Positions 1-12,083 of a stretch of DNA of 64,000 nt are shown here, one piece after another. The position numbers and the translations under genes are program-made. The notes beneath the pieces are model-generated. The model searched no databases. It was given only the letters and a program-made list of their open reading frames with translations, and had not been told where the DNA came from. The DNA lies in assembly GCA_963775465.1 (NCBI GenBank), contig CAVZIW010000012.1, positions 1 through 64,000 on the forward strand, read 5' to 3'. How positions within the stretch are numbered: position 1 is the stretch's first letter; each line of letters starts with the position of its first letter. Origin of the DNA: Candidatus Bathyarchaeota archaeon (lineage in GTDB: Archaea > Thermoproteota > Bathyarchaeia > Bathyarchaeales > Bathycorpusculaceae).

Positions 1-284
1 AAAAGGCTTATCGCAGCTATTTTCTGCGCATTATTCTCTGCCTGCATATACGTAAGTGCTGCCTTACGATACAACTGTAGGTGACAACTAACAATTGTGA
101 GAAGTGCATTTTTAACTTCCAAAACAAGAGGCTGCCACACTGGTTTAGTAGCGAAATCATGATAGATTGTACTCTTAGCACACCCATATTTCACACTTAA
201 TCTTTCAACTATTTCTTTACGAAAATACCCGTATCCTTCGTCCTTTAGTAATTCTAAGCGTCTTTCAAGGGTTTGCTGCTGCAT
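1..284 (-). CDS. HTH protein, possibly terminase small subunit-like (runs off window start)
   Basis: Manual translation from ATG at 284: MQQQTLERRLELLKDEGYGYFRKEIVERLSVKYGCAKSTIYHDF... HTH-like and open to position 1. Lies downstream of the ParB/ABC/GNAT cassette, where packaging genes often follow in tailed viruses. Confidence 0.4.
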   Translation of the reverse strand, partial: MQQQTLERRLELLKDEGYGYFRKEIVERLSVKYGCAKSTIYHDFATKPVWQPLVLEVKNALLTIVSCHLQLYRKAALTYMQAENNAQKIAAISL

Positions 285-322
285 TTGTGGTCACTTTTTC
301 TAAGGTTTTTGTAATTTTAGCT

Positions 323-838
323 CTACAAGATAAGTTTTGATGGGTTTAGTTGTGGTTGTTTACGAGTTTGAGGTTTGTACTTGAAGCTGAAAGTTAAGCG
401 GTTTTGGCTGCTACTGTTAATTAGGTTTTTTTCTCGTCGAAACCTGTTATTCTTGTTTACGCTATGTCCTGCTCTCTTCAGGATCCAGCAGGGGCTGTTG
501 CGTAAATGTATCAGCTGAGGATTACTGGAAACTATGAAAAAGTCCAGGCGAGTTTTTTCATAAAAGTATTGGGCTGCCCAAGTCAAGAGCCTTGTTCCAA
601 TGCCAACGCCCTGGTAATCTGGAAGAACCACAAGGCGGCTAACCCGCCAATACTTGTATTTGTACTGTGAACGCCCAATCGAGATGAATGCTACGGGTTT
701 GCTGTTGTAGAGCGCCACGTAGTGTTTGTTTGATGTTAGGATGTTTGTGTTTAGATAATGATATTGCCTAAAGAGGCACCAAAGACTCCGAGTGCACTCA
801 TAGATTTCAAGCTCAATTGGGGGTCGTGAACTTTTTTT
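323..838 (-). CDS. GNAT acetyltransferase, C-terminal part of a probable ABC-ATPase/GNAT frameshift fusion
   Basis: Acetyl-CoA motif RLVVLPDYQGVGIG. The frame is open upstream of GTG 718 to the A9 run (KKSSRPPIELEIYEC..W..FRQYHYL) with no start codon. Confidence 0.75.
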   Translation of the reverse strand, partial: KKSSRPPIELEIYECTRSLWCLFRQYHYLNTNILTSNKHYVALYNSKPVAFISIGRSQYKYKYWRVSRLVVLPDYQGVGIGTRLLTWAAQYFYEKTRLDFFIVSSNPQLIHLRNSPCWILKRAGHSVNKNNRFRREKNLINSSSQNRLTFSFKYKPQTRKQPQLNPSKLIL

Positions 839-1467
839 TTATCACGAAGCTGAAACTTCATTGTGTCGGTGTAGAGTACCCAGTCTGGTTCAAGCCAATC
901 TTCAACATCATAGTGGCATGTGACAGCAACAAACTGCTTGTTTGAACGCTTAATTGATTTACTGATTGCAAAGGACGCTATTTTTGCTATTTCTCGGTCA
1001 ACTACACTTGTGAACTCATCGAAAACTATGAGCTCTTTTCCAGTTATTGGGTTAATGGGCATCTTGGTGCAGAGTGCACGTGCGATGTCTACCCGCATTT
1101 TTTCGCCTTGACTTAGACAATCATAGCTTTTGAGCCAATCTGGCGGAGACGCAAAGCCAACGTTGCAGAGGGCTGTTGTTATTTCGTCAACTGTGTTTTC
1201 TTTAGGAAAATCGGCTAGGAAGTTCTTGTGTGTATACTCGAAGCTTCTGATGTAGGCGTCTGGGAACTTTTCTTTCGCTATACTTGTTTTTCCTGTTCCG
1301 GAGCGCCCAACAATTAACCCGATCTTCCAGTCAAGGCCTTCAATGGGGATCTCTCCGGTAAACTGTTTCTGAAGCTTAATGTCTTCAAGGGTGAAAGACG
1401 CTTTGACCGCTGCGGTCCTGAAATTTTCTTCTGGAACCCAGGACTTTACAATGTCAAAACTCGGCAT
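751..1467 (-). CDS. Soluble ABC-type ATPase (GNAT-associated)
   Basis: Walker A GRSGTGKT, signature LSQGEKMR, Walker B IVFDEF, H-loop VTCH; no permease nearby. Confidence 0.85.
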   Translation of the reverse strand: MPSFDIVKSWVPEENFRTAAVKASFTLEDIKLQKQFTGEIPIEGLDWKIGLIVGRSGTGKTSIAKEKFPDAYIRSFEYTHKNFLADFPKENTVDEITTALCNVGFASPPDWLKSYDCLSQGEKMRVDIARALCTKMPINPITGKELIVFDEFTSVVDREIAKIASFAISKSIKRSNKQFVAVTCHYDVEDWLEPDWVLYTDTMKFQLRDKKKVHDPQLSLKSMSALGVFGASLGNIII

Positions 1468-1993
1468 TTGTACCCTTCTGAAACTAGTTTAGTGTAGATT
1501 GCTTCCTGGTTGATTTCGTCTTCACATTCAACGACTACTTCAAACTGTTTTTCGTAGCCAATTGATTCTTCCTCTTTGAGGTACCCATCAAGTTTATCAT
1601 CAGACAAATCAAGCAGATACTTAAGGTCCTCTTCTTGCCTAGCTCTATTATTGTTTCAAATTCTTCTGCATCAAGTTCGCGGTCATGAGTTCCTTTGAGC
1701 TTGTTTAGAACTTGACGGATTAAGTGTCTATCAACTTCTTCGATTGGAAGCCTGATGATGAGGACATTTGGCATCGCGAGCTCTTTGGCTATGATCCATC
1801 TTTGCTCGCCATCCGCTATGAGCAGGTCTTTGTTTGTGATGATTGGCACAATAAAGCCAAATTTCTGTATTGAAGCTTTGAGGCGGTCATACTGTTCCCG
1901 CGACATCTTATTGGGGTTCTTGCCATCCACTTTAAGCGCAGAAGTTGCCACAACTTCCGGTTCAGGAATTAAAATCTCTAAAGTCAAGGTCAT
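1446..1993 (-). CDS. ParB/Srx N-terminal domain protein (one indel near 1635)
   Basis: NPNKM...SIQKFGFIVPII...IADGEQRW motif. After a frameshift it continues ...EKQFEVVVECEDEINQEAIYTKLVSEGYKCRVLTL*, overlapping the ABC ATPase start. Confidence 0.75.
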
Positions 1994-2307
1994 GCAAACC
2001 TTGTCAGAAGATAAGTTGTCAAAGCTGTGATAACAACAGAAACTGCGATGGGTTTAATCAGGTCCAGCCAACTCGCAGAAACCTTATTTTTCGCTTCCAA
2101 ATCATCGAGTTTCTGAAGCATCCGATGAATCACACCATCATTAAGCCCGGTTCCGTCTTTGCCTAAAAGCGAAATCAAGGCCTTATCAACCTGTTTCATG
2201 CAGGCAGTGTTAATGTTAATTTGAGTGACATAGGGGCAAGAGGGGTTTTTGTAGGCCTCAGAACAATCAGCGACATCAGCTTCACTCATTGAAATCGCTC
2301 CAACCAA
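1990..2307 (-). CDS. Small protein with coiled coil and C-terminal TM helix (virus-like)
   Basis: ORF track; hydrophobic C-terminus IKPIAVSVVITALTTYLL; overlaps the ParB start. Confidence 0.55.
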   Translation of the reverse strand: MVGAISMSEADVADCSEAYKNPSCPYVTQININTACMKQVDKALISLLGKDGTGLNDGVIHRMLQKLDDLEAKNKVSASWLDLIKPIAVSVVITALTTYLLTRFA

Positions 2308-2828
2308 AACCTCACCGTAATCATGATTCAGAACTTGAGATTGAAAAACAACTTCAGAAACATCAGGGATACTCTTTCAGCCAAAACTTCAGAAACAATT
2401 TTCTCTGTTTCCACAGTATGCACCGTTTCCGCCAAAAGCTTATCATGAAAACTGATACTTTAGAAACAGATCATTCGCATCGCTTCCTATTGTAACGTTT
2501 TTGCCTTTTTTCTGCGCTACGAAGATTGCCCCATAAAATCCTCTCTATTTTTGTTAATGTGCCCTGATACGCCGCTCTTTTTCTGCCCTGGTGGCAAGTA
2601 TAAGGGAGTTGAAAACTGTGATGTTGATCCTTTAATTTGAACGGTTAAAAGCTTTACGATTAAAGTTATAAACATCAATCACAGAGACACCAGACCCTCA
2701 ATAACCCCCGGGTAATAAAACGCTCACAAAAAACTAAACATGAAAAAACTGCAGAAAAGATCAAGAAGCGAATATGTTGAGCTGCATTTTGAGACCCTTT
2801 TCTTTGCTAAAGAATTAGAAAACTAAAC

Positions 2829-5800
2829 TTACTTATAGGTCCATTTACCGTTTAGTTCCTTGGGGGGGGGCAAACGTACTATGAAAGTGGTTCCTTTGCC
2901 TTCTTCACTCTCAAAGTGTACTGTTCCGCCTAAGTGCTTCAGTCATGCGTTTAATTACTGCTAAACCAAAGCCTTGACCTTTAGCTTTAGTTGTAAACAT
3001 TGGAGTAAACAGTTTTTCTTTAATCTTTTCAGGAATACCAACTCCAGTATCCTTGACAGTTATGACGATGTCCTTTGCTTCTTTGTAAGCGTGTATGATT
3101 AGTTTACCGCCTTTTGGCATGGCTTGAACAGCATTATTAACCAAATTTACCATAATACGGTTTATGAAAGTGGAGTCAGCTACAACTTTCCAGCAGCAGT
3201 TTCACTTTAATGCTTACTTTAACGTTTTCTGGCAAACCGTTCTTTTTCAACAACTCGTCGATTATGAGTTTTAAGTCGACTTCTTCGGCATTCGGGTTAA
3301 GCGGTCTGGAAAAATCTTGCAGGTCCGCAACAATCTTGTTAATGTAATCAACGTTCTTTTCAACTTCTGACAAGCTATCTAATGCACTTTTTTTCTCTTC
3401 GCTCTCAGGTGTCGAAGCCAATTCTGTTTTAGCAAATAAACATCGCTAGCTATAGCCTGCAAAGGATTGCGAATATCATGCCCAACCATACCTGCAGTCG
3501 CGCCAATAGCAGCTAAACGCTCAGAATCTTTAAGTTGTTTGGTGCGTTCTTCAACAAGATTCTCCAAGTTCTTGGAGTATTCATCAAGTGCCTTTTCAGC
3601 CTTTTTTCGTTTAGTAATATCTGTGAAAGATAAGAATGCTCCGTCAATTTTTTTGTCTTCAGTTAAATACGGTCGAACCCGCATTTCATAGCAACGGCCT
3701 TCCAAACCCTCAACTTCTCGACTAACAGGAGTTAACTTGTCGATTACATCAGTTATTGTCTTTTCCAAGTCTTCGATATGAACTCCTGGAGTAACATTGG
3801 CGATGGAGCCCCCAACATCGGATGGCGAAATTCTCAAAAGTTCTTGAGCTGCATGCAGTAAAACGCCTTATCTTCAGGCCACTGTCAACGATAACCACTG
3901 CGATGTCAATGTTCGTTTGCAGATTAGCCAAGTCATCATTCAGGCGACCAAGAGCCTGATTGCGGTTCTTAAGCTCCTCATTTAAAGTCTGCAATTCCTC
4001 GTTGCCAGACTGCAACTCTTCTTTTGCGGTTTCCAATTCTTCATTTGTGCTCTGCAACTCTTCATTGCTCGACTGAACCTCTTCCATAGACGACCGCAAC
4101 TCTTCATTGGTTGCCTCCTGCCCCTCAACAAGAGTCTGCAAAGACTGCTTAGTTGCCTCCAAATCCTCCCTTAAGCTCACGAATTTGACGATCCTTAAGA
4201 CTCTCTATTTCGCCAGGCGAAACTGGAGATTCAACTTCTTGAACTGAATGCATATCATTTGAACCTGTCTTCAGTAAACAACACAAAGTAGAAAGGTTCG
4301 TCATACTGCGGTGTTTCTAATGGCCTTATCTCTATGTTAACTGTTTTTGGTTGGCCTTTTTGTTTGAAACGAACCGTTTCTTTGAAGGCTTTCTTTTCTT
4401 TTTTTGCTCTATAAAGAGCAGTTTGAACTTGTGACCTCAACTCTTTTCGGATAATCTTTGTTACGTTAAAACTCGCCGCTCCTGATTCAGGCGAAAGATA
4501 TGGAGAAACATCTCCACGAAAAACCAGTATATCCAAGTTATTATTACCAACAAAGTCGCTGGACCATACTCTGTCGTTATTAGATGATCAACTTTCTCGC
4601 CCTAAAACAGTCAGTAGATCTGCTTTTTCAAGCGGTTTAACGGTGTTCTTTGAAGACTGTCGGAACAAAGTTTTCATTTAACAAAATTTGTGGCTGTGCT
4701 TGCTTCTTTCTGTAAATTAGACCTTTTGTGGTAATTGGTTCGAAGAGGTATTGGAATTTGCCAATACTTTCAGATTCACCCAGAACTAGAAAACCATTGG
4801 GCTTTAATCCATAATGGAATATCGGAAATACTCTTTCATGAAGAAGAGGGTCAAAATAGATGAGTACGTTTCGGCACATAATAAGGTCTAAGTTGGAGAA
4901 AGGCGGATCGTTTGTTATGTCTTGCTTTGCGAATATGCACATGTCTCGGATGAGTTTTGTTATTTGGTAATTTCCGTTTTGCCTATTGAAAAATCGTTTT
5001 AGTCTGTTTTCGGAAACGTTGTCTTCTATAGTTTTTGGATATATTCCTTGGCGAGCTTTCTCAATATTCTTTTCATTTGCATCAGTACCAAAAATTTGGA
5101 TCCGTATCTCAGGTATGATTTTTTCTTCTAGGAATTCTTGGATTGCAATGGCAAAAGAATAGACTTCTTCGCCTGTTGAACACCCTGGAACCCAAACACG
5201 AATGGACTCATTGGGTGACCTGTTTTTGATAAGTTCAGGAAAGACTTTTTCCTTCAGAGCCTCAAAGGTTTTTGGTTCTCTAAAGAAACTTGTGACGCCG
5301 ATGAGCAGGTCATCAAACAATGCTTGTAGGCTCGTTTGGGTGTGTTCGCAAATACTCGACGTATGCTTTCATGTTTTTGGTTTTGTTGATGACCATGCGG
5401 CGTGTGATGCGTCGGTTTATAGTTGTTTCTTTGTAGTGGGTGAAATCAACGCCGAAAGAAGTTTTGAGCACATGATGATTTTTCTCAAGTCAGATTCGGT
5501 TTTTTCTGTTTCTGATATTTTTGTTTTGGAAGGAAGTGATTTGAGGGTGTTTGGCGATTCTGACCAGTTCTTTTGCTATCATTTCTGGGGAAAGAACAAA
5601 ATCGGGGGTTTCGGCTGCTATGGCGTTTTTGGGCATGTCAGGATATTGCGCTGTGTCTGGGTCTTGTGCGAAGGTTATTCCGCCTTCAGCCTTGATTGCT
5701 TTTAGTCCTTCGGTTCCGTCATTGCCTGTTCCTGACATGACGATTCCGATTGCTTGGGTTTTTCGCTCTGAAGCTATGGAAATCATGAAGTCGTTGATGG

Positions 5801-6158
5801 GTTTAAGAGCTGAACCTTTGGGAACAAGCTTAAGGCAACCGTTCTTTAACGTCATAGTTGTTCCTGGAGCGATGACGTAAACGTTGTTTTTTTCAACTTT
5901 CATGCCATCTTTTACTTGTTGAACTTTCATTTTGGTTGATCTTGAAAGGATTTCTGGCAGCATGCTTTCTTGTCCAGTAGCTAAATGCTGGATAACAACA
6001 AATGACATACCCGTATCAAGGGCAAGTTTCTAGAAGTTTTCGTGATTGGGTCTAATCCGCCTGCAGAAGCGCCAATCCCAACAATTGGAAACTCCGAATT
6101 TTCGATCTTGAGTTTAGAAGAGTTTTGCAGATTTCAAACCGTTTTTCTTTGTAGCCAT
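2829..6158 (-). pseudogene. CheB-CheR-PAS-histidine kinase fusion broken by many frameshifts
   Basis: Consecutive fragments: CheB (GASAGG, QH, GTGNDG), CheR (VWVPGCSTGEE, CRNVLIYF), ELQSTNEELET coil, PAS, HisKA (GHDIRNPL), HATPase (NLVNNAVQAM, DTGVGI, FTTKAKGQGFGL). Could be an intact gene with sequencing indels. Confidence 0.85.
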
Positions 6159-6425
6159 TTGCAGACCCCCAACAATTATACTGACAATTCTTAGTCAAAT
6201 TCGTATTAAAGCCTATCTAAGACTTAACAATATTTAATTGATGACAGCCGACAGACCTTTGGGAAAGACTAACAGAACCGAACATTAACACAAAGTTGTG
6301 CGATTTATTTTAAGCTTAAGCACCAAATCCTTTGGCAACAACCAAGTGATCCCGCCTCAAAAACCGATTGTGGAATTTCCGGTCAACCTATCTTTGCAGG
6401 CAAGCATTCAATTAGTCTGTTCAAA

Positions 6426-6605
6426 TTATTCCCATTTTCCGCTACTTTGCTTAAACTGCATCTGAACCACACGGCAATCCTCACACCAAATCCTGCGCAT
6501 CTTCGAGACAGGACTATCATGGGTGTCTTTGGTGTAGTGCCGAGTTTCTTTCTTGCAGACAGGACACACTAACCATCCTGCAAAGTGCGCGTCAGCTTGA
6601 TTCAT
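6426..6605 (-). CDS. 59-aa zinc-finger protein
   Basis: Not in ORF track. MNQADAHFAGWLVCPVCKKETRH...IWCEDCRVVQMQFKQSSGKWE*; two CxxC motifs; ATGA overlap with the upstream stop. Confidence 0.65.
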   Translation of the reverse strand: MNQADAHFAGWLVCPVCKKETRHYTKDTHDSPVSKMRRIWCEDCRVVQMQFKQSSGKWE

Positions 6606-7615
6606 CTAACATAATCTCCAAGTTTCTTCTGGCCTTCAACAACCTCAACTGAGTCTGGTTCCTCCAAATCCGCTACTCTGCCCAGCATCATATCGGTTAA
6701 ACGCTCATTGGCAGCAGCCAAACGCTCAAACTGACCATACAAAGCATCCAGCTTAGCCTCCAAATTCGCCAACACCACAGGAAACTCTACAGCCGAAACC
6801 GCCAACCGTTTACCCGAATCATAGGCAACAGGAAAACCTGCAGCGCGAGCAGCCAAACGCTTATCACTATACTCCAAATGAGGCCTACCCGACAGCGGAT
6901 CCTTCTTGTCATGCGTGGGACTGTGATCTAAAGCGCCTACACCTTCAACCTCAACGGTCCCAGCTGAAATCCACTCATGACACTCAGGACGATAAATACG
7001 CCATCTCGGATTATGCAACGGTACTCCGTTCTCAGAGAGTTGCATGCCAAACTTCTGCTCCAAAACAACCCTGGTACGCTCAACAATCCGAGCAGCCTCC
7101 ATCTCCAACTCATCAACATTAAACCCCTTAACCTGCCCAGGATGAATAACAACTGTAGGCTCCAAACCCAAATTCAACTCCACCCGAACCACCCCAATCA
7201 AAACTCCAAGCTTTCGCCAATTCCGCGGCTCCCCCAATTTTTCCCAATCCACACGGCAACGCTCCCGACGCAAAACCACAAACTTCAAAGCATGATCCTC
7301 AAACACCACAGGCAAACGCAACTCACCGTCACTTCCAGTGAGAAGCTTTGAACCATAAGGCGTCAACTCATAGTATTTCACTATGCCATCCTGTTTTAGC
7401 CGCAGGGCGCCCGCTTGGATGAAGCGATCTTTCCAATAAGACACGTTACTTTTCACGCAATTTGCGATTTTGACTGCTTCACTAGCTACGCCATCAGCAC
7501 CTAAAACAGCAAGAATCTTCTGTGCCTTCTCCGGTAAAGGCTCTAAGAGTTCAAAACTCTTATTGAACCTTTGAACCGCTCCCTTTGAACTGGGTTCAAT
7601 GACACGATTCTTCAA
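6602..7615 (-). CDS. Winged-HTH protein with uncharacterised C-terminal domain, candidate replication initiator
   Basis: N-terminal wHTH (KSNVSYWKDRF...YYELTPYG), then HALKF, NW and DHSP motifs and a terminal coiled coil. Function is inferred from context. Confidence 0.5.
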   Translation of the reverse strand: MKNRVIEPSSKGAVQRFNKSFELLEPLPEKAQKILAVLGADGVASEAVKIANCVKSNVSYWKDRFIQAGALRLKQDGIVKYYELTPYGSKLLTGSDGELRLPVVFEDHALKFVVLRRERCRVDWEKLGEPRNWRKLGVLIGVVRVELNLGLEPTVVIHPGQVKGFNVDELEMEAARIVERTRVVLEQKFGMQLSENGVPLHNPRWRIYRPECHEWISAGTVEVEGVGALDHSPTHDKKDPLSGRPHLEYSDKRLAARAAGFPVAYDSGKRLAVSAVEFPVVLANLEAKLDALYGQFERLAAANERLTDMMLGRVADLEEPDSVEVVEGQKKLGDYVR

Positions 7616-7778
7616 CCAAAAAAATCATCCTACTACTGTGCCGCGGGTTTTCTACCTGGAAAAGCGCACGTTTTGTTATTTCTTCAAGTTCATGAAAATT
7701 GGCGCCAAAGTTGAGGGCTAAGCCAGCAAGAAACATTTGCATGTAGACGGTTGCAAGCTCAATTTCTCTTTGCTTCAT
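7596..7778 (-). CDS. Small hypothetical protein
   Basis: 60-aa ORF overlapping both neighbours in an operon-like way. Confidence 0.45.
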   Translation of the reverse strand: MKQREIELATVYMQMFLAGLALNFGANFHELEEITKRALFQVENPRHSSRMIFLVEESCH

Positions 7779-8263
7779 CGAGTAACCTCCGGTTCTTGGT
7801 CGATAATTATGGATGGTTTGGGCAGGGCATGCAAATGCTGAAGTTGATTAAGCATGGGAATAAGGTCCTTCACAGTTCGGGAATCGTCACCAGTGGCGAT
7901 GTAGGGCAAGAAAGCAACGGTTTTGGAGCTCTGAAGCAGATAGGCAGCTTCTAAGTGGGATTTGATGAACCAGAACATGACGCGCATGCTGATGTCCCAG
8001 TTTATGGATTCTGCTTTGGAGCGGGTTTTGCGATCCCATATCGCTGGCGCCTCAACCTTCGCTGAAAACTGCCTGGGCACCTCGTCGATCTTTTCAGCGA
8101 TTTTGAATTGGACAAAGACTTCGTTGTTGTCTGGATCCCAACGCCAGTAGGTGTCTTTGACTCCCCATTTAGCGAATAAACCATCAATCTCGCTTCTTGT
8201 GTAAAGTGCTTTCAGCTTGGTGGTTTTGTATGGTAAGTTAGGGTCATCACTATAAATTTTCAA
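7775..8263 (-). CDS. Hypothetical protein resembling conserved prophage proteins
   Basis: TRSEIDGLFAKWG...RVMFWFIKSHLEAA...FLPY pattern recalled from prophage hypotheticals; first gene of the element's operon. Confidence 0.55.
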   Translation of the reverse strand: MKIYSDDPNLPYKTTKLKALYTRSEIDGLFAKWGVKDTYWRWDPDNNEVFVQFKIAEKIDEVPRQFSAKVEAPAIWDRKTRSKAESINWDISMRVMFWFIKSHLEAAYLLQSSKTVAFLPYIATGDDSRTVKDLIPMLNQLQHLHALPKPSIIIDQEPEVTR

Positions 8264-8363
8264 AATTGTTCCTCCTTGAAGAGTTTAGAAAAATGTTACT
8301 AGAATGAAAAAAGGGAAGGAAGCTGCGAAGAAACCAATGGAGTGGCGATATCGCCCGCTGACT

Positions 8364-8391
8364 GTGGGTTCGAATCCCACCCCCTGCACCA
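8364..8391 (+). repeat. att site: 3' end of a tRNA (Leu-type), GTGGGTTCGAATCCCACCCCCTGCACCA
   Basis: Perfect T-arm, acceptor 3' strand and CCA. The required 5' half (GCAGGGG...) is absent upstream. Confidence 0.85.
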
Positions 8392-8679
8392 TATATAAAT
8401 AAACTCTAGGGGGTTTGTCCTGGCCCGACATAGGGAGTGCTTTTTGCCAAGTTTGCGTTTTCTAATATTTTTGCACCTTGAAATTCAGTAACATACTTAA
8501 AGCCAGCTTACCAGACTGCAAATTTCTTTTTCTCTTTTGGAACCTTTGAAATGTAGTTTGTTTCGCCTTGGAATTAGTGCTATGGGGAACAAAATGGCGA
8601 AGCCCGCAAAAAATTGCGGGCTCGGCAAGAGCAGAATATTTATTATCACAGAGCAGATGCCTATTAACGGAGAATTTTT

Positions 8680-9075
8680 ATGGATCATAAGAAAATAGCA
8701 ATTGACTTTTTAAGCCCCAGCCTAACGGGCAAATTCAGTGATGGTGTGAAGTATTTTTCGCCTGATTGCCAAACCCATAATCCTTACTTTTCCGGAAACA
8801 TTAAAACCCTGACTCAAGCGATGGACAAAGCAAACAAACAAGGAAAAGGCCAGTATCCGAACGCAGAGTTTACAATCAAACAAGCCATAGAGGAAGGAGA
8901 CACAGTTGCCGTGCACACCGAACTCTTAAATGACAAAACCAAGCCAGATCAAGGCGGCCTCAGGCAAGTGCATCTCTTCCGCTTCACTGGCAACAAGATA
9001 ATCGAGTACTGGGACATTACCCAACAGATAACGCCAGAGATGCCCAACGCGGCAGGTGCATTCTATTCAGGATAA
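8680..9075 (+). CDS. SnoaL-like / NTF2 family protein
   Basis: HNPYF, AIEEGDTVAVH, VHLFRFTGNKIIEYWD pattern. Confidence 0.85.
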   Translation: MDHKKIAIDFLSPSLTGKFSDGVKYFSPDCQTHNPYFSGNIKTLTQAMDKANKQGKGQYPNAEFTIKQAIEEGDTVAVHTELLNDKTKPDQGGLRQVHLFRFTGNKIIEYWDITQQITPEMPNAAGAFYSG

Positions 9076-9321
9076 ACAAAGGAAAAAACGTCGAGGTTTG
9101 ATTCTTCGACCGTTTGTGCAGTAAATGGAGCAAAGATCTTCCGCAAACGGAGGGGGTTATAGTAAAGAATGTTTGATTTTATTTTTTATAGTTTGTTGAA
9201 GAATAGTAAAATCGTCGAAGCCTTTCCTACTATACACCAGAAAACGGAAGATCTCGGTAGCTTTGCTGAATTATACGGTAACTATATACTTGATGCTACC
9301 ATTAAAAAAGGAGTGAAATAC

Positions 9322-9612
9322 ATGTCTGAAAAAGCTAGTGACGTTATTTTTGTTGGAAACAAACCCCCAATGAGCTATGTGCTCGCCATCATAACCGCAT
9401 TCTCTTCCGAAGGCCAAAAAGAAATCACCCTTAAAGCAAGAGGCCAAGCAATAACCACAGCAGTTGACTGTGCAGAAATCGCAAGAAACCGCTTCATCAA
9501 AGAACTTACTGTGAAGAACATAAAAATCGACACCGTCGAGATGCCGCCAAGAGAAGGCGAAAACAGGTCCCGAATGGTTTCCACGATGGAAATAACTCTC
9601 GCAAAGCCCTAA
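9322..9612 (+). CDS. albA: DNA/RNA-binding protein Alba (copy 1)
   Basis: IFVGNKPPMSYVLA, KARGQAITTAVD, VSTMEITL; GGAGTG ribosome-binding site before ATG 9322. Confidence 0.93.
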   Translation: MSEKASDVIFVGNKPPMSYVLAIITAFSSEGQKEITLKARGQAITTAVDCAEIARNRFIKELTVKNIKIDTVEMPPREGENRSRMVSTMEITLAKP

Positions 9613-9761
9613 AACACCCCCAATATTTTTGTTTTTGTTTCGTAAAGGCCTTTCACGAATTGAGATTTTGCCATAATTGTGAACAATCGTGTTACATGTA
9701 GATTTACCTTATACGCAAAGAAAAGAGGGAGCTTGCGAGTGACACCACGGCAACTTAAGGT

Positions 9762-9783
9762 GTTCGACTCCGAACCCCCTGCA
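9762..9783 (+). repeat. Degenerate copy of the tRNA-Leu 3' att fragment
   Basis: GTTCGACTCCGAACCCCCTGCA versus GTTCGAATCCCA-CCCCCTGCA. Confidence 0.65.
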
Positions 9784-10146
9784 TTTGAGTCGAACTCCAT
9801 CGATTAGTTTTGCCAGTGGTTTTTAAGCTGAAAAGTGAAGGCAGAAAAGACACTAACTTGAGATGCTGAAAGGTCACATAATCTGACAAAAAACTCAAAA
9901 AAGAACACTCTGCCCATCCTCATCCCACCCATCCTACATAACCTGCGAGAAAAAAGACCGATTTCCCCATCCCAACGCAAATAAAAAAACAGCCCAAACC
10001 AAAAAACCAAACCCTCCGACAACCCAAAGATGGGATGGGACAACTCTGCAAACACCCATCCCCACAAAGAAACAAAAAATGAAAAACCAACCAACAGTAA
10101 ACCCTTTCTCTGCCCAGAGCCTCTTTCGGGAAAGAAATCAGTATAA

Positions 10147-10190
10147 TTCGAATCCCAAACCCCTGCACAATATAAAAAAACTCTAGAGGC
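10147..10190 (+). repeat. Degenerate copy of the att fragment plus its downstream flank
   Basis: TTCGAATCCCAAACCCCTGCACAATATAAAAAAACTCTAGAGG versus TTCGAATCCCACCCCCTGCACCATATATAAATAAACTCTAGGGG starting at 8369. Confidence 0.8.
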
Positions 10191-10313
10191 CCAAATGGCG
10201 ATGTGGAAAGCGTGTTTCAGCAGTTTTCCCTTGCCTTCTCTCGGGCTTGAGGTCGAAATTCAAGGCAAAAATTAATATTCTGAAAAAAACAAATCCCCAA
10301 ATCAGGGTTAACA

Positions 10314-10802
10314 ATGAAGGGAATAATCATTTACGACACCTCCTACGGAAACACCCAGAAAATTGCTGAAGTACTTGCAGAAACGCTAAAAGAGGCAAGA
10401 ATTGAAACCGATGTTTTCCACATAAAAAAAGTCAAGAAATTAAGCGGAAAGGAATACAAATTTCTAGCTCTTGGCTCTCCAACAAAATACGGCACCATGA
10501 GCTTTGCAATGAAGTTCTTCTTAGGCAAAATAAAAAGTGAGGAATGGACAAACAAGCCCTTCATTGCTTTCGACACAGAAAACCCAGAGAACGTTGAGAA
10601 ATCTCGTGAAGAGAACAAAAACTGGAGCGCAGCAGAGAAGATCGCCGAGAAACTCGAGGAGAAGAAGATGAACCAACTGCTGCCCGTTTTGAAAGGCCTT
10701 GTGCAAGGTTGGAAAGGTCCACTTGTCGAAGGAGAGATAGAACGCACAAAAAACTACGCTAACGAAATGGCAACCAAATTGAAGGAAAACCTTATTCCCT
10801 GA
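10314..10802 (+). CDS. Flavodoxin domain protein
   Basis: IIYDTSYGNTQKIA, LGSPT and AFDT motifs. Confidence 0.88.
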   Translation: MKGIIIYDTSYGNTQKIAEVLAETLKEARIETDVFHIKKVKKLSGKEYKFLALGSPTKYGTMSFAMKFFLGKIKSEEWTNKPFIAFDTENPENVEKSREENKNWSAAEKIAEKLEEKKMNQLLPVLKGLVQGWKGPLVEGEIERTKNYANEMATKLKENLIP

Positions 10803-10837
10803 ATTGCTCGTGAAATAAAATAATTGAAGGAGTTTAA

Positions 10838-11389
10838 ATGAGAAGACTTTTGAAAATTATAATAATTGTTTTTGCTGTCATACTTGTCTTAATCGTTTCA
10901 GCCTTTGCCGCCTTAAGTTTAGACATATCAAGCTTCGGCGCAACTGGCAGTGAAACTCTAAATCCGGCAGGCAGCCCGATTGGGCGCGCATTGGTTGTTT
11001 ACGACCCCGGCTTCTCTGGCGCCGCAAAACAGGATGCGGCAAAGATTGCAGATAACCTTCAAGCAGAAGGCTACATAGTTGATTTAGCGGGAGTGCGAAG
11101 CGAGACGGCCGGCAACAAAACGGGCTATGCTGTGATTGTCGCTGGAGGTCCAGTGTATTTCGGACAAGTCAGCAGCTCGATTGGGGAATTCTTGAAGACG
11201 GTTCCGATAAATGTAAGATTAGGAGTGTTTGGGGCTACAGGTTCAAGTACGTTTTCAGAGAGCGATTTCACATCATTTGCGAATCAAGTTACCCATGCTA
11301 CTCTAAATGAAGGGGTCACCTTAAAATTGATATTAGATGGGAACGAGGCAAATGACTGCGCAGACTTAGTTTCAAAGATAGTGCAATAG
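10838..11389 (+). CDS. Membrane-anchored flavodoxin-fold protein
   Basis: N-terminal TM helix; ALVVYDPGFSG and VAGGPVYFG. Confidence 0.7.
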   Translation: MRRLLKIIIIVFAVILVLIVSAFAALSLDISSFGATGSETLNPAGSPIGRALVVYDPGFSGAAKQDAAKIADNLQAEGYIVDLAGVRSETAGNKTGYAVIVAGGPVYFGQVSSSIGEFLKTVPINVRLGVFGATGSSTFSESDFTSFANQVTHATLNEGVTLKLILDGNEANDCADLVSKIVQ

Positions 11390-11741
11390 AGATAGCACAA
11401 ATAATTAGTGTCCTAGGTCACAATTGCTAATTGCAAAGGAAAGTTCAAATTGGAATCAAAAAACGGTCAACGGTGAAGAAGAGGATCTTGATTTCTCATG
11501 GGAAAAAACTTGAAGCCTTTAGATGAATTGAAGAATATGCTTACTGATTAGTCTTTACACCTGTAGTTTTAGTGGGCAAGCAAGCGGGGCAGAAACGGCT
11601 AGTTTAAAATCAGCTACTTTTAGGAGATCGATTCTGTCTTCATTAATAGATTTACTCTTGGTTTTTACAAAGACTGTTCTACCAAAGGTACTGCTCAAAC
11701 TTTTTTAATATCAGAATAGCTTACCCTCATAGGCGAGTTTT

Positions 11742-12083
11742 TTGTTTTTTGGGCACAAAAATAAACCTCAAAGTGAACTCAAAGTTGACTTCGGCGATTT
11801 ACAAAACGAAAAAGAAAACCTAACAAGTTTTCTTCAACAACACCTCAAAGTTTCAGTTTCCCAAGTTGAAGAGAAGTTAAGAGTAGATTCAGAAAATGTG
11901 TCACTTCAGGAACTGCAGCATGCAGTAAACAAGTTTGTCTACCACCGAGACCTAAACAACACTCATTGGGTCTCTGTTGAAGGTGAAACTGTAAAAATTA
12001 ACAGATTTAAATTCGTCGAGAAAAAAGAGAAACCTGAAAAAGAGCCTCCTCACCAAACTGCTGCACAAAGCTGGGGACTATAA
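11742..12083 (+). CDS. Ribosomal protein eL22-like protein
   Basis: Size and pattern (L.SFL..HLKV...L.V....S...L...V.KF.Y...L....WV) resemble eL22 homologues; recognised from memory. Confidence 0.5.
   Translation: MFFGHKNKPQSELKVDFGDLQNEKENLTSFLQQHLKVSVSQVEEKLRVDSENVSLQELQHAVNKFVYHRDLNNTHWVSVEGETVKINRFKFVEKKEKPEKEPPHQTAAQSWGL

Follow-up and report, generated by a model that had tools for sequence, protein, structure and literature searches.

The tau and gamma products of Escherichia coli dnaX arise through a −1 ribosomal frameshift at A_AAA_AAG, which is accompanied by a hairpin, and dnaX of Thermus thermophilus is subject to transcriptional slippage on a run of nine A residues (A9). The tau/gamma recoding is treated in review PMC5009743. 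For archaea, the sole demonstrated −1 frameshift is that of Saccharolobus solfataricus fucA1 at A_AAA_AAT, according to the excerpt of a 2021 review (PMC8211752), and excerpts of PMC5009743 and PMC3711429 describe inferred frameshifts in the tail chaperones of haloarchaeal tailed viruses and an A_AAA_AAR signal in Mg-chelatase genes. In phages, acylation of a DNA base has been predicted for a 'GNAT coupled with an ABC ATPase' module (Viruses 2021, PMC7824862, section 3.4.7); the passage mentions neither frameshifting nor archaeal viruses. The JGI label of the phrog_11143 module is 'ABC-type ATPase with predicted acetyltransferase domain'. Literature searches gave no paper describing a frameshift in an ABC ATPase/GNAT gene, and none on COG2401. 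The module is not treated in the excerpts of PMC5512222, PMC12704722, PMC12839542 and PMC13229309, and the main text of the Bathyarchaeia virus paper PMC10848311 contains 0 occurrences of acetyltransferase, ABC, frameshift or ParB.

The window, a stretch of 64,000 nucleotides from the start of contig CAVZIW010000012.1 of a Candidatus Bathyarchaeota archaeon (assembly GCA_963775465.1), contains a gene of this kind in which the ATPase and the GNAT domain lie in different reading frames that meet at an A9 run. Judged from its position and conservation, this run is probably a programmed recoding signal, be it ribosomal or transcriptional. As in dnaX, one gene would give two N-terminally identical products through an A-run slip at a domain joint. 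Both the heptamer-plus-hairpin and the long-run solution are found among its relatives, as is an in-frame sister clade with a full-length default product and a −1 stop directly behind an A10 run. Unlike in dnaX, the predicted default product is the short one and slippage would give the long one, as in G/GT of phage lambda; the gene family is a different one and the host is archaeal. With fucA1 the gene shares an archaeal host, an A-rich heptamer, the −1 direction and the joining of two ORFs into one functional protein, which is predicted in the window. However, fucA1 has been proved by experiment and is a cellular gene known from a single species, whereas the window carries a putative virus gene whose signal is conserved in about 100 environmental loci.

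The phage module and the window gene have in common the match to phrog_11143 and a ParB-like gene directly upstream, and Tenacibaculum phage pT24, named in the excerpt of PMC7824862, is among the tblastn matches; the different frames of the two domains set the window apart. With the tRNA(Met) cytidine acetyltransferase TmcA (PDB entry 2zpa) there is an analogy of architecture, not of membership: TmcA also combines a P-loop ATPase with a GNAT domain that acetylates a nucleic-acid base, but its ATPase is helicase-like and not of the ABC type. Foldseek with the model of P0003, an in-frame relative of the window gene, ranks TmcA second with a poor overall fit (TM 0.27 / 0.17), and phmmer with P0003 against the PDB sequences gives no match at E 0.01.

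Anatomy and genomic setting of the split gene

The features of the locus are collected in Table 1. Read on the minus strand, the joint is ...CAG CTT CGT GAT AAA AAA AAA GTT CAC GAC.... The 0 frame enters it as ...LRDKKK and ends 26 codons past the A9 run with ...LGNIII and a TAA. The −1 frame has a TAA of its own, which shares bases with the 5' end of the run and so confines a shift into the GNAT frame to the run itself. Beyond this stop the −1 frame reads KKSSRPPIELEIYECTRSLWCLFRQYHYLN... and remains stop-free for 171 codons down to position 323, and its continuation across the joint would be SSRPPIELEIYECTR. The GNAT frame has no ATG at all, and its first NTG is a GTG 37 codons past the run. 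The anatomy is thus as described in the sequence-only reading, which had placed an A9 with an in-frame A-AAA-AAA at T832–840, with a short tail after it in the ABC frame, a TAA just before it in the −1 frame and then an open GNAT frame with no start for about 40 codons.

Table 1. Features of the locus, in positions of the window
Feature	Positions	Strand	Basis or remark
0-frame ORF, 238 aa: ABC-type ATPase of about 211 aa plus 26-codon tail; predicted default product	751..1467	minus	ABC_tran; phrog_11143
A9 run (T9 on the plus strand) holding A_AAA_AAA in 0-frame phase; proposed slip site	832..840	minus	Sequence; same run in L122, L123, L124, L126, L131
−1-frame stop (TAA) that extends into the 5' end of the A9 run	839..841	minus	Sequence
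−1 frame of 171 codons plus stop (323–325), coding for a linker and the GNAT acetyltransferase domain; entry only by a −1 shift	323..838	minus	Acetyltransf_1; phrog_11143
26 dual-coded codons, shared by the 0-frame tail and the N-terminal GNAT region	754..831	minus	−1 frame better conserved
0-frame stop TAA, located where the GNAT frame encodes the conserved YHYL(N)	751..753	minus	Same place in nearly all split relatives
GTG, first possible start in the GNAT frame	716..718	minus	A start here would remove about 40 domain residues
ParB-like partner gene, disrupted by the loss of one base in this copy only (GG at about 1638–1639; GGG in relatives)	1449..1993	minus	phrog matches
First 94 codons of a gene, truncated by the contig start, whose counterpart in relatives lies ahead of the large terminase	3..284	minus	54% identical to L037:4096–4614

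The 0-frame ORF matches Pfam ABC_tran (E 5.8e-6, 27.4 bits against a cut-off of 25) and the −1 frame matches Acetyltransf_1 (E 1.2e-11), the latter from residue 26 onwards and hence upstream of the GTG (residue 41). P0003 matches phrog_11143 end to end (E 1e-91). On the same profile the 0-frame ORF of the window covers positions 11–205 (E 1.4e-53) and the −1 frame positions 198–350 (E 4.4e-32), with continuity to the ATPase only through the −1 shift. The Walker A (GRSGTGKT), signature (LSQGEKMR) and Walker B (VFDEFTSVVD) motifs show little or no variation across 28 relatives, and the predicted structure consists of an ABC nucleotide-binding fold and a GNAT fold. In the genome (2.4 Mb, 40.5% G+C) there are 55 A/T runs of at least nine residues. 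The A9 run by itself is not beyond chance, while its position at the domain joint together with its conservation exceeds it.

In relatives a ParB-like ORF of 178–208 aa lies directly upstream. Its broken counterpart in the window matches phrog_498 (E 5.5e-23) and phrog_620 (E 9.7e-18) and stays below the ParB_N cut-off (21.6 against 26.3 bits). Downstream, the large terminase TerL (phrog_2, E 1.2e-38) and a portal gene (phrog_9232) follow in L037, and TerL adjoins the locus in L008, which lies on a Bathyarchaeota chromosome; in the window the terminase side is off the contig start. No tRNA or att site was found in positions 1–12000. The host genome is archaeal, with an archaeal SSU rRNA (1474 bits) on contig C4, which also bears a paralogous copy of the gene, and an archaeal SRP RNA. 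These data support the assignment of the gene to the phage ABC ATPase plus GNAT family (phrog_11143) and its placement on a putative head-tailed virus or provirus of a Bathyarchaeia archaeon, the provirus context having been proposed from the sequence at the outset along with a warning about many indels. The latter is borne out at the contig end, where besides the ParB-like gene a histidine-kinase gene that lies beyond it is broken into at least three pieces, with its PAS domain split across frames. Given these frame breaks, the window copy may be decaying; the signal would still be real in the family.

The −1 arrangement among relatives

In 43 loci (five genomic and 38 on viral contigs) the GNAT domain lies at −1 behind a run of A7–A10 with an in-frame A_AAA_AAA. 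The run is A9 in 27 of them, A7 in 13, A10 in two and A8 in one, and the 26-codon 0-frame tail is present in nearly all. Three Bathyarchaeota genomes are among the loci with a −1 split over an A-run. Metagenome loci show the same arrangement in 67 of 80 cases (38 A7, 26 A9, three A8) and an in-frame one in two, and the pooled genomic, viral and metagenome loci amount to 92 distinct downstream sequences. The GNAT frame is open for 150–205 codons in the split loci, and no intact locus has it in +1. A tree built from the ATPase part places the window in a clade of 43 rows (SH-aLRT 99), of which 41 are at −1, one is in frame with A10 and one bears indels. The sister clade is in frame in 35 of 40 rows. 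Its viral fused loci keep a perfect A10/A11 in 37 of 37 cases despite varied flanks, and in 35 of 36 loci the A10 run is immediately followed by a −1 stop (TAG or TAA). All in-frame relatives found (L073, L133 and this sister clade) retain a slippery run.

The 26-codon overlap allows the two frames to be compared. Conservation is higher in the −1 frame (BLOSUM62 per site 3.70 against 1.97 for the 0 frame), and the least variable position is codon position 2 of the −1 frame. Among 36 distinct rows the −1 frame contains 0 stops, while the third frame has stops in 36 of 36. This supports the −1 frame as the one that is under protein-level selection in the overlap.

In cultured Lactobacillales phages the gene is divided at this joint too, and the slippery heptamers, correctly phased, are different ones: G_GTT_TTT in five Streptococcus/Lactococcus phages, A_AAG_GGC in Oenococcus and A_AAA_AAG in Enterococcus 9184. 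Such non-homopolymer heptamers in other lineages would point to the ribosome. In a search for a stimulatory structure after G_GTT_TTT in the Streptococcus/Lactococcus phages, just a weak long-range 5 bp stem was found (z −0.3 to −2.3). The statement in the sequence-only reading that phage ABC/GNAT pairs are often split at a lysine-coding A-run at this very point is matched by the viral, metagenome and phage loci. Its proposed switch between an ATPase and an ATPase–GNAT fusion draws support from about 110 loci, from the selection on the −1 frame and from a start codon that is not conserved in position.

Run length, RNA structure and the machine behind the probable slip

Standard decoding would produce the 238 aa ATPase. 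At the A9 run, decoding would now and then step back by one base; in the reading that we favour, and which we hold at about even chances, this is a −1 ribosomal frameshift in which both lysine tRNAs re-pair on A_AAA_AAA. Translation would then carry on in the GNAT frame and yield an ATPase–GNAT fusion of about 380 aa. The run would thereby set a constant proportion between the two proteins, as for tau and gamma of dnaX. The anatomy, its conservation and the selection on the −1 frame are shown by the sequences; that slippage occurs, at what level, and that the two forms act together is what we infer.

The same fusion would be obtained by ordinary translation if the archaeal RNA polymerase stuttered on A9 and added one A to some of the transcripts, in the manner of Thermus dnaX and IS elements. 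This is still programmed recoding; the product model is unchanged and only the machine differs. We consider such programmed transcriptional slippage a tentative possibility. In its favour, and counting against the ribosomal reading, A9 and A10 are lengths at which bacterial RNA polymerases stutter, according to the excerpt of PMC1088944, and in the excerpt of PMC3711429 poly-A length tracked efficiency in Mg-chelatase cassettes. The perfect A10/A11 runs of the sister clade, kept despite varied flanks, fit the same explanation.

A7/A8 relatives have a hairpin that begins 7 nt past the run, and for 45 distinct A7 rows the 50 nt downstream fold with a mean of −19.9 kcal/mol (mean z −2.7). In the window the 92 nt downstream fold with −14.4 kcal/mol (z 0.15), with no stimulatory structure 5–9 nt downstream, and none of the 42 distinct A9 rows has a downstream structure (mean −6.9 kcal/mol, z +0.3). 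For the z values of the relatives the shuffle controls were in one set an approximate dinucleotide swap, and mononucleotide for the pooled A7/A9 and phage sets. No consensus fold emerges over 39 distinct sequences of the clade. The hairpin is present in 50 of 55 rows with a short run (7–8) and in 0 of 53 with a long run, a link that traces back to about five transitions with only three independent pairs on supported branches, which puts significance out of reach. Compensatory changes are found in 0 of 14 pairs of the A7 hairpin. Loci with A9 or A10 (28 of the 43 and 26 of the 67 metagenome loci) are all without hairpin. Since the window and its A9 relatives lack the hairpin that the A7 relatives have, the slip in the window copy may be either ribosomal or transcriptional.

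Several observations disagree with stuttering. The heptamers of the other lineages (G_GTT_TTT, A_AAG_GGC) are poor stutter sites, and GNAT is never found at +1 although stuttering also deletes bases. Three contigs from sequencing runs span the run, an A9 (DNA), an A9 (RNA library) and an A8; as contigs they leave depth and the missing A10 uninformative, and the RNA-library contig (X15, 735–916) may derive from DNA or have dropped minor variants. The runs searched were all present as contigs, each matching at most 0.39 of the sampled words. The literature searches brought up no account of archaeal RNA polymerases slipping in a programmed way, and the phrase 'programmed transcriptional slippage' occurs once in review PMC8211752.

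Readings without recoding and the predicted enzyme

If the run were a hypermutable tract, replication slippage would switch GNAT on (A10) or off (A9, A8) at the DNA level. Run-length variants do occur among close relatives: A8 in L125 and in one X1 contig, A10 in L133 and L073, and the sequence that has A9 in L123 exists in frame as P0003 (375 aa, 93% identical). Some of these variants are on short contigs with a second homopolymer deletion (L127), which resembles sequencing noise. The states are also strongly unbalanced, with −1 prevailing in the window's clade and among the metagenome loci and the fused form in the sister clade. A GNAT frame that is 'off' would decay, yet it is open and conserved, and lineages without a repeat tract keep the same split. 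Phase variation is thus unlikely.

Two separate genes, with GNAT starting by itself at the GTG or by re-initiation past the ATPase stop and the open −1 stretch upstream left untranslated, would agree with the GenBank annotation of phage homologs and with the distance of 33 nt between the ATPase stop and the GTG. A start at the GTG would nevertheless remove a part of the domain that is matched by the Pfam and PHROG profiles and is common to the in-frame homologs (RPxI.L...C..LW..F..YHYL), a stretch that the −1 frame keeps conserved and free of stops. Across the split loci the position of the first NTG in the GNAT frame ranges from upstream of the run to 66 codons past it, and by eye no purine-rich ribosome-binding site precedes the GTG. 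This arrangement is very improbable.

An assembly error in this MAG alone (the true gene being an A10 in-frame fusion) or a dead copy, for which the degenerate other copies in the same genome and the frame breaks at the contig end (GGG to GG in the ParB-like gene, the fragmented histidine kinase) could be cited, has hardly any probability left: the −1 split is common to about 110 related loci and five of the seven closest independent contigs keep A9, L122 aligns with 0 gaps across 1239 nt, no contig compared at this strain level has the A10 that the sequence-only reading had named as the alternative, P0002 (96% identical) has the same 238 aa form in a cluster of 91 member sequences, and both frames are intact apart from the shift and 90–93% identical to the natural fusion P0003. 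The conserved split thus argues that it is neither an error nor a pseudogene.

ABC ATPases act as dimers. Together with its ParB-like neighbour, the enzyme is predicted to place an ATP-dependent acyl mark on a DNA base. More speculatively, the two-product switch may have been kept at one domain joint while its machinery was swapped: A7 with a hairpin, A9 on its own, an in-frame A10 followed at once by a −1 stop, or G_GUU_UUU. Sister lineages would then depend on ribosomal frameshifting (A7 with a hairpin) or on stuttering of RNA polymerase (A9), and the proportion of the two proteins could set the composition of a mixed ATPase dimer with a single acyl-transferase head for DNA-base modification. 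On this conjecture Bathyarchaeia viruses would hold the first widespread, naturally replicated archaeal −1 recoding signal. Archaeal recoding is barely documented, and in this one gene family a −1 signal comes in about 100 natural variants, carried by viruses of a major class of uncultured archaea. The contrast between its two designs, one pairing a short run with a hairpin and the other having a long run alone, would help to ask how archaeal ribosomes and RNA polymerases slip.

The claim can be tested in harmless cultured carriers such as Lactococcus phage P335 and Oenococcus phages. In all seven Lactobacillales phage records inspected the gene is split into an 'ABC transporter' and a 'hypothetical protein' or short GNAT, for example Orf24/Orf25 of P335 and a 'GNAT family N-acetyltransferase' in MismyG. 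As a consequence of this gene calling, the full-length enzyme of the predicted DNA-modification system is absent from those annotations.

The ATPase–GNAT joint in the window

The ABC ATPase and the GNAT acetyltransferase meet at a run of nine A's, the second in the −1 frame relative to the first. The features of the locus and of its neighbourhood are collected in the table. The sequence-only reading had described the two frames, the A9 run and the missing start codon, and this description is accurate according to ORF reading, Pfam matches and codon lines. Behind the run, the −1 frame translates as KKSSRPPIELEIYEC...FRQYHYLN...; it contains no ATG, and its first NTG is a GTG 37 codons past the run. 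A nine-A run by itself is not rare in the source genome, which contains 55 A/T runs of at least nine.

Features of the ABC/GNAT locus and the adjoining genes
Feature	Position	Strand	Remarks
GNAT in −1 frame	down to 323	minus	open 171 codons; Acetyltransf_1 E 1.2e-11 from residue 26 on
ABC-type ATPase ORF, 238 aa	751..1467	minus	Pfam ABC_tran 27.4 bits, cut-off 25
ATPase-frame stop TAA	751-753	minus	26 codons past A9 run; tail ...LGNIII
A9 run at domain joint	832-840	minus	ATPase frame reads ...CGT GAT AAA AAA AAA GTT...
−1-frame TAA	841-839	minus	overlaps start of A9 run
ParB-like partner gene, two frames	1449-1993	minus	1-base deletion at about 1638-1639, GG for GGG
105-aa ORF upstream of ParB-like gene	1990-2307	minus	no Pfam or PHROG match
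Sensor histidine-kinase gene adjoining the element, at least 3 frames	2911-4180	minus	PAS_10 1-32 and 33-106 in different ORFs

In the seven closest independent contigs (87–93% nucleotide identity) the run is A9 in five (L122, L123, L124, L126 and L131) and A8 in two (L125 and L127), while A10 is seen in none of the seven. L122 aligns with the window over 1239 nt with zero gaps. Of the contigs aligned with the window, A9 is present in one from DNA and one from an RNA library, and A8 in one that is 91% alike. The protein P0003 is a natural in-frame ATPase–GNAT fusion, which would require the L123 sequence to exist somewhere in an A10 form.

Conservation of the −1 joint and its in-frame counterpart

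A word-indexed protein search returned 7461 relatives of 130–417 aa. Among the best 120 of these 7461, 119 are 206–282 aa long and hold ATPase-type domains only, the majority being 226–238 aa and ending in ...KKK, about 25 residues and ...LG.ITI; the one exception is P0003 (375 aa, 93% identical). The sequence-only reading had suggested comparing homologous junctions at the nucleotide level, and this comparison places the joint at −1 over an A-run at 43 loci in the fetched DNA and at 67 of 80 metagenome loci. The −1 split is conserved and not private to the window.

The 43 loci, obtained by probing the fetched DNA by tblastn with P0003, comprise the window, one paralogue on contig C4 of the source genome, three Bathyarchaeota genomes and 38 IMG/VR contigs. 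Their runs are A9 (27 loci), A7 (13), A10 (2) and A8 (1), and all 43 contain A_AAA_AAA in 0-frame phase inside the run. Nearly all of them have a 0-frame tail of 26 codons, and the GNAT frame is open for 150–205 codons. The 80 metagenome loci come from a second survey, in which JGI metagenomes were scanned with the window's own protein. The 67 loci at −1 have A7 (38), A9 (26) or A8 (3). Six others have the run but end before the GNAT, one is cut before the joint, two have the GNAT in +1 (L125 with A8; L126 with an extra indel upstream) and two lack the run (the divergent L132, and L173 with A4, still at −1). The two in-frame loci are L133 (A10) and L127. IMG/VR and JGI contigs may share an origin, and the 110 split loci pooled give 92 distinct downstream sequences. 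L127, a metagenome contig that is 91% identical, has two 1-base homopolymer deletions (A9 to A8 and C5 to C4) and reads ...KKKFPTPIELEI...; its in-frame fusion represents a natural repair or, alternatively, sequencing noise in homopolymers.

A quick ML phylogeny (LG+G4, SH-aLRT support) was computed from the ATPase part of 95 rows; rows whose ATPase is broken or whose locus lacks a GNAT had been excluded. The window's clade (43 rows, support 99) contains 41 rows at −1 and, besides these, L073 (in-frame, A10) and L002, an indel-bearing copy from the window's own genome. Of the 40 rows in a neighbouring clade, 35 are in-frame and five at −1, and the frame state changes at least six times on the tree. 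The in-frame viral loci (n = 37, within L063–L110) have A10 at the joint in 35 cases and A11 in two, with variable flanks, and in 35 of the 36 tested a TAG or TAA in the −1 frame directly follows the run. These loci still carry the slip signal, in the same layout as dnaX, in which the long product would be the default and a slip would give a truncated ATPase. The run is missing only in the G+C-rich Planctomycetota fusions, EastWest and SL25. Across the family, both products appear to be retained while the default changes from one to the other.

P0003 also matches the phage family phrog_11143 (unknown function) from end to end (E 1e-91). A match occurs in 61 phage records, and the counts are taken from the 60 records listed. 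Eighteen of these 60 are in at least two pieces, all 18 from Lactobacillales phages (among the matches listed, Streptococcus 12, Oenococcus/Vinitor 3, Lactococcus P335 2 and Enterococcus 1), and the other 42 form one in-frame piece each and come from Gordonia, Arthrobacter, Porphyromonas, Burkholderia, Aeromonas, Leptospira, Tenacibaculum pT24 and others. All seven split records examined (L111, L112 and L114–L118) are at −1 at the same joint with heptamers in phase: G_GTT_TTT in five Streptococcus/Lactococcus phages (from codon lines, position checked), A_AAG_GGC in Oenococcus Vinitor-27 and A_AAA_AAG in Enterococcus 9184. In arteriviruses and cardioviruses, frameshifting at G_GUU_UUU is proven. 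In each of the seven, GenBank annotates one gene per half; the GNAT half is a short gene of its own, labelled 'hypothetical protein', 'unknown' or GNAT, or, in Enterococcus 9184, is merged into a 'DNA polymerase' CDS.

In the parts of the literature covered we found no description of a frameshift in the ABC ATPase–GNAT family and, at main-text level, none of the module in Bathyarchaeia viruses. The type of mechanism is textbook and the present case is a further example; new here are the archaeal-virus clade, the contrast of A7 plus hairpin with bare A9, the A10-plus-stop mirror form at these loci and the cultured Lactobacillales carriers.

Proposed routes into the GNAT frame

No consensus RNA structure was found over the window's clade, and the 92 nt downstream of the window's run fold no better than shuffles (z 0.15). 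In 45 distinct A7 rows the mean folding energy of the first 50 nt is −19.9 kcal/mol (mean z −2.7), and the structure is a hairpin in two parts, GCCGCCCG...CGGUGCGGC, beginning 7 nt past the run; for 42 distinct A9 rows the mean is −6.9 kcal/mol (z +0.3). A hairpin of −13 kcal/mol or better is present in 50 of 55 short-run rows versus none of 53 long-run rows. This corresponds to the classical contrast between a ribosomal frameshift site and a polymerase-stutter site, but the support is thin. Within the A7 hairpin 96% of cells pair and no compensatory change was found, and the run class changes only five times on the tree, which leaves three independent pairs on supported branches and no significance. 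The 1013-nt metagenome contig L173, with A4 through the in-frame loss of three A's, retains the hairpin sequence with its GNAT in −1; this copy has no usable slip site.

Programmed slippage of either kind is likely. On the ribosomal route, a −1 shift on the in-phase A_AAA_AAA would carry the ATPase into the GNAT frame, and for the window's copy we give this route an even chance. A purely transcriptional slippage is less likely for this copy. It is favoured by the run length of A9–A10 and by the fact that sites of precisely the window's type lack a stimulator. The ribosome is favoured by the −1 direction, which is constant, by the heptamer that A7 and A8 forms carry in phase, and by the non-homopolymer heptamers found in other lineages. 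Both routes yield the same protein.

The 26-codon overlap was compared between frames in 37 distinct rows of the window's clade. Conservation is higher in the −1 translation than in the 0-frame tail, with a mean BLOSUM62 per site of 3.70 versus 1.97 and an identity of 0.55 versus 0.49. Variability at −1-frame codon positions 1, 2 and 3 is 0.91, 0.61 and 0.99 bits, lowest at position 2 and highest at position 3. In 36 distinct rows the overlap is free of stops in both the 0 and the −1 frame, and each of the 36 has stops in the third frame. The conserved −1 peptide rPpi.l.v.rC..slWq.FRqYHY also occurs in in-frame homologues of Arthrobacter, Pseudoalteromonas and Planctomycetota. A GNAT started separately, as a gene of its own, is unlikely, since its earliest possible start is not fixed in position and wanders from before the run to 66 codons past it among the 43 −1 loci.

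Predicted function and the state of the element

In the AlphaFold model of P0003 (pLDDT 80.9), an ABC nucleotide-binding fold precedes a GNAT fold. Foldseek with this model retrieves transporter ATPases and small GNATs, and TmcA at low TM; a PDB sequence search with P0003 gave no match. 'A GNAT coupled with an ABC ATPase' is predicted in PMC7824862 to perform an uncharacterised acyl modification of a DNA base, and beyond this prediction no published functional statement on the module was found in the parts of the literature covered.

The source assembly (15 contigs, 2.4 Mb) contains an archaeal SSU rRNA (1474 bits) and, above the cut-off, an archaeal SRP RNA, and the nearest genomic copies of the gene lie in three Bathyarchaeota assemblies, one a 2.9-Mb chromosome. 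In relatives the gene order is ParB-like, ABC/GNAT, an ORF of 165–175 aa (54% identical to window 3..284), large terminase and portal, which points to a head-tailed virus or provirus. The window begins at the first base of its contig and the element is therefore cut. Four further copies are present in the genome (C4:4131-4805, C5:36896-37567, C1:48339-49007 and C6:9773-10445; L002–L006). The C4 copy, with A7, −1 and the hairpin, is the only intact one, and its contig also carries the 16S gene; the C5 copy has A9 and another indel near the joint and the C1 and C6 copies have several stops. The contigs probably broke at the repeated ABC/GNAT element.

The ABC and GNAT frames of the window's copy are intact. 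The deletion in the ParB-like gene is private to the window: none of eight close contigs shares it, and relatives have one ORF of 178–208 aa. The HATPase_c domain of the histidine kinase is truncated, in an 80-aa ORF. The frame breaks in these two genes mean that the element is decaying or that the consensus is poor at this end of the contig; the family-level conclusion is unaffected. Window 1-12000 holds no tRNA gene, and the element's right-hand border was not located. The region 2308-2910 lies between the 105-aa ORF and the histidine-kinase gene.
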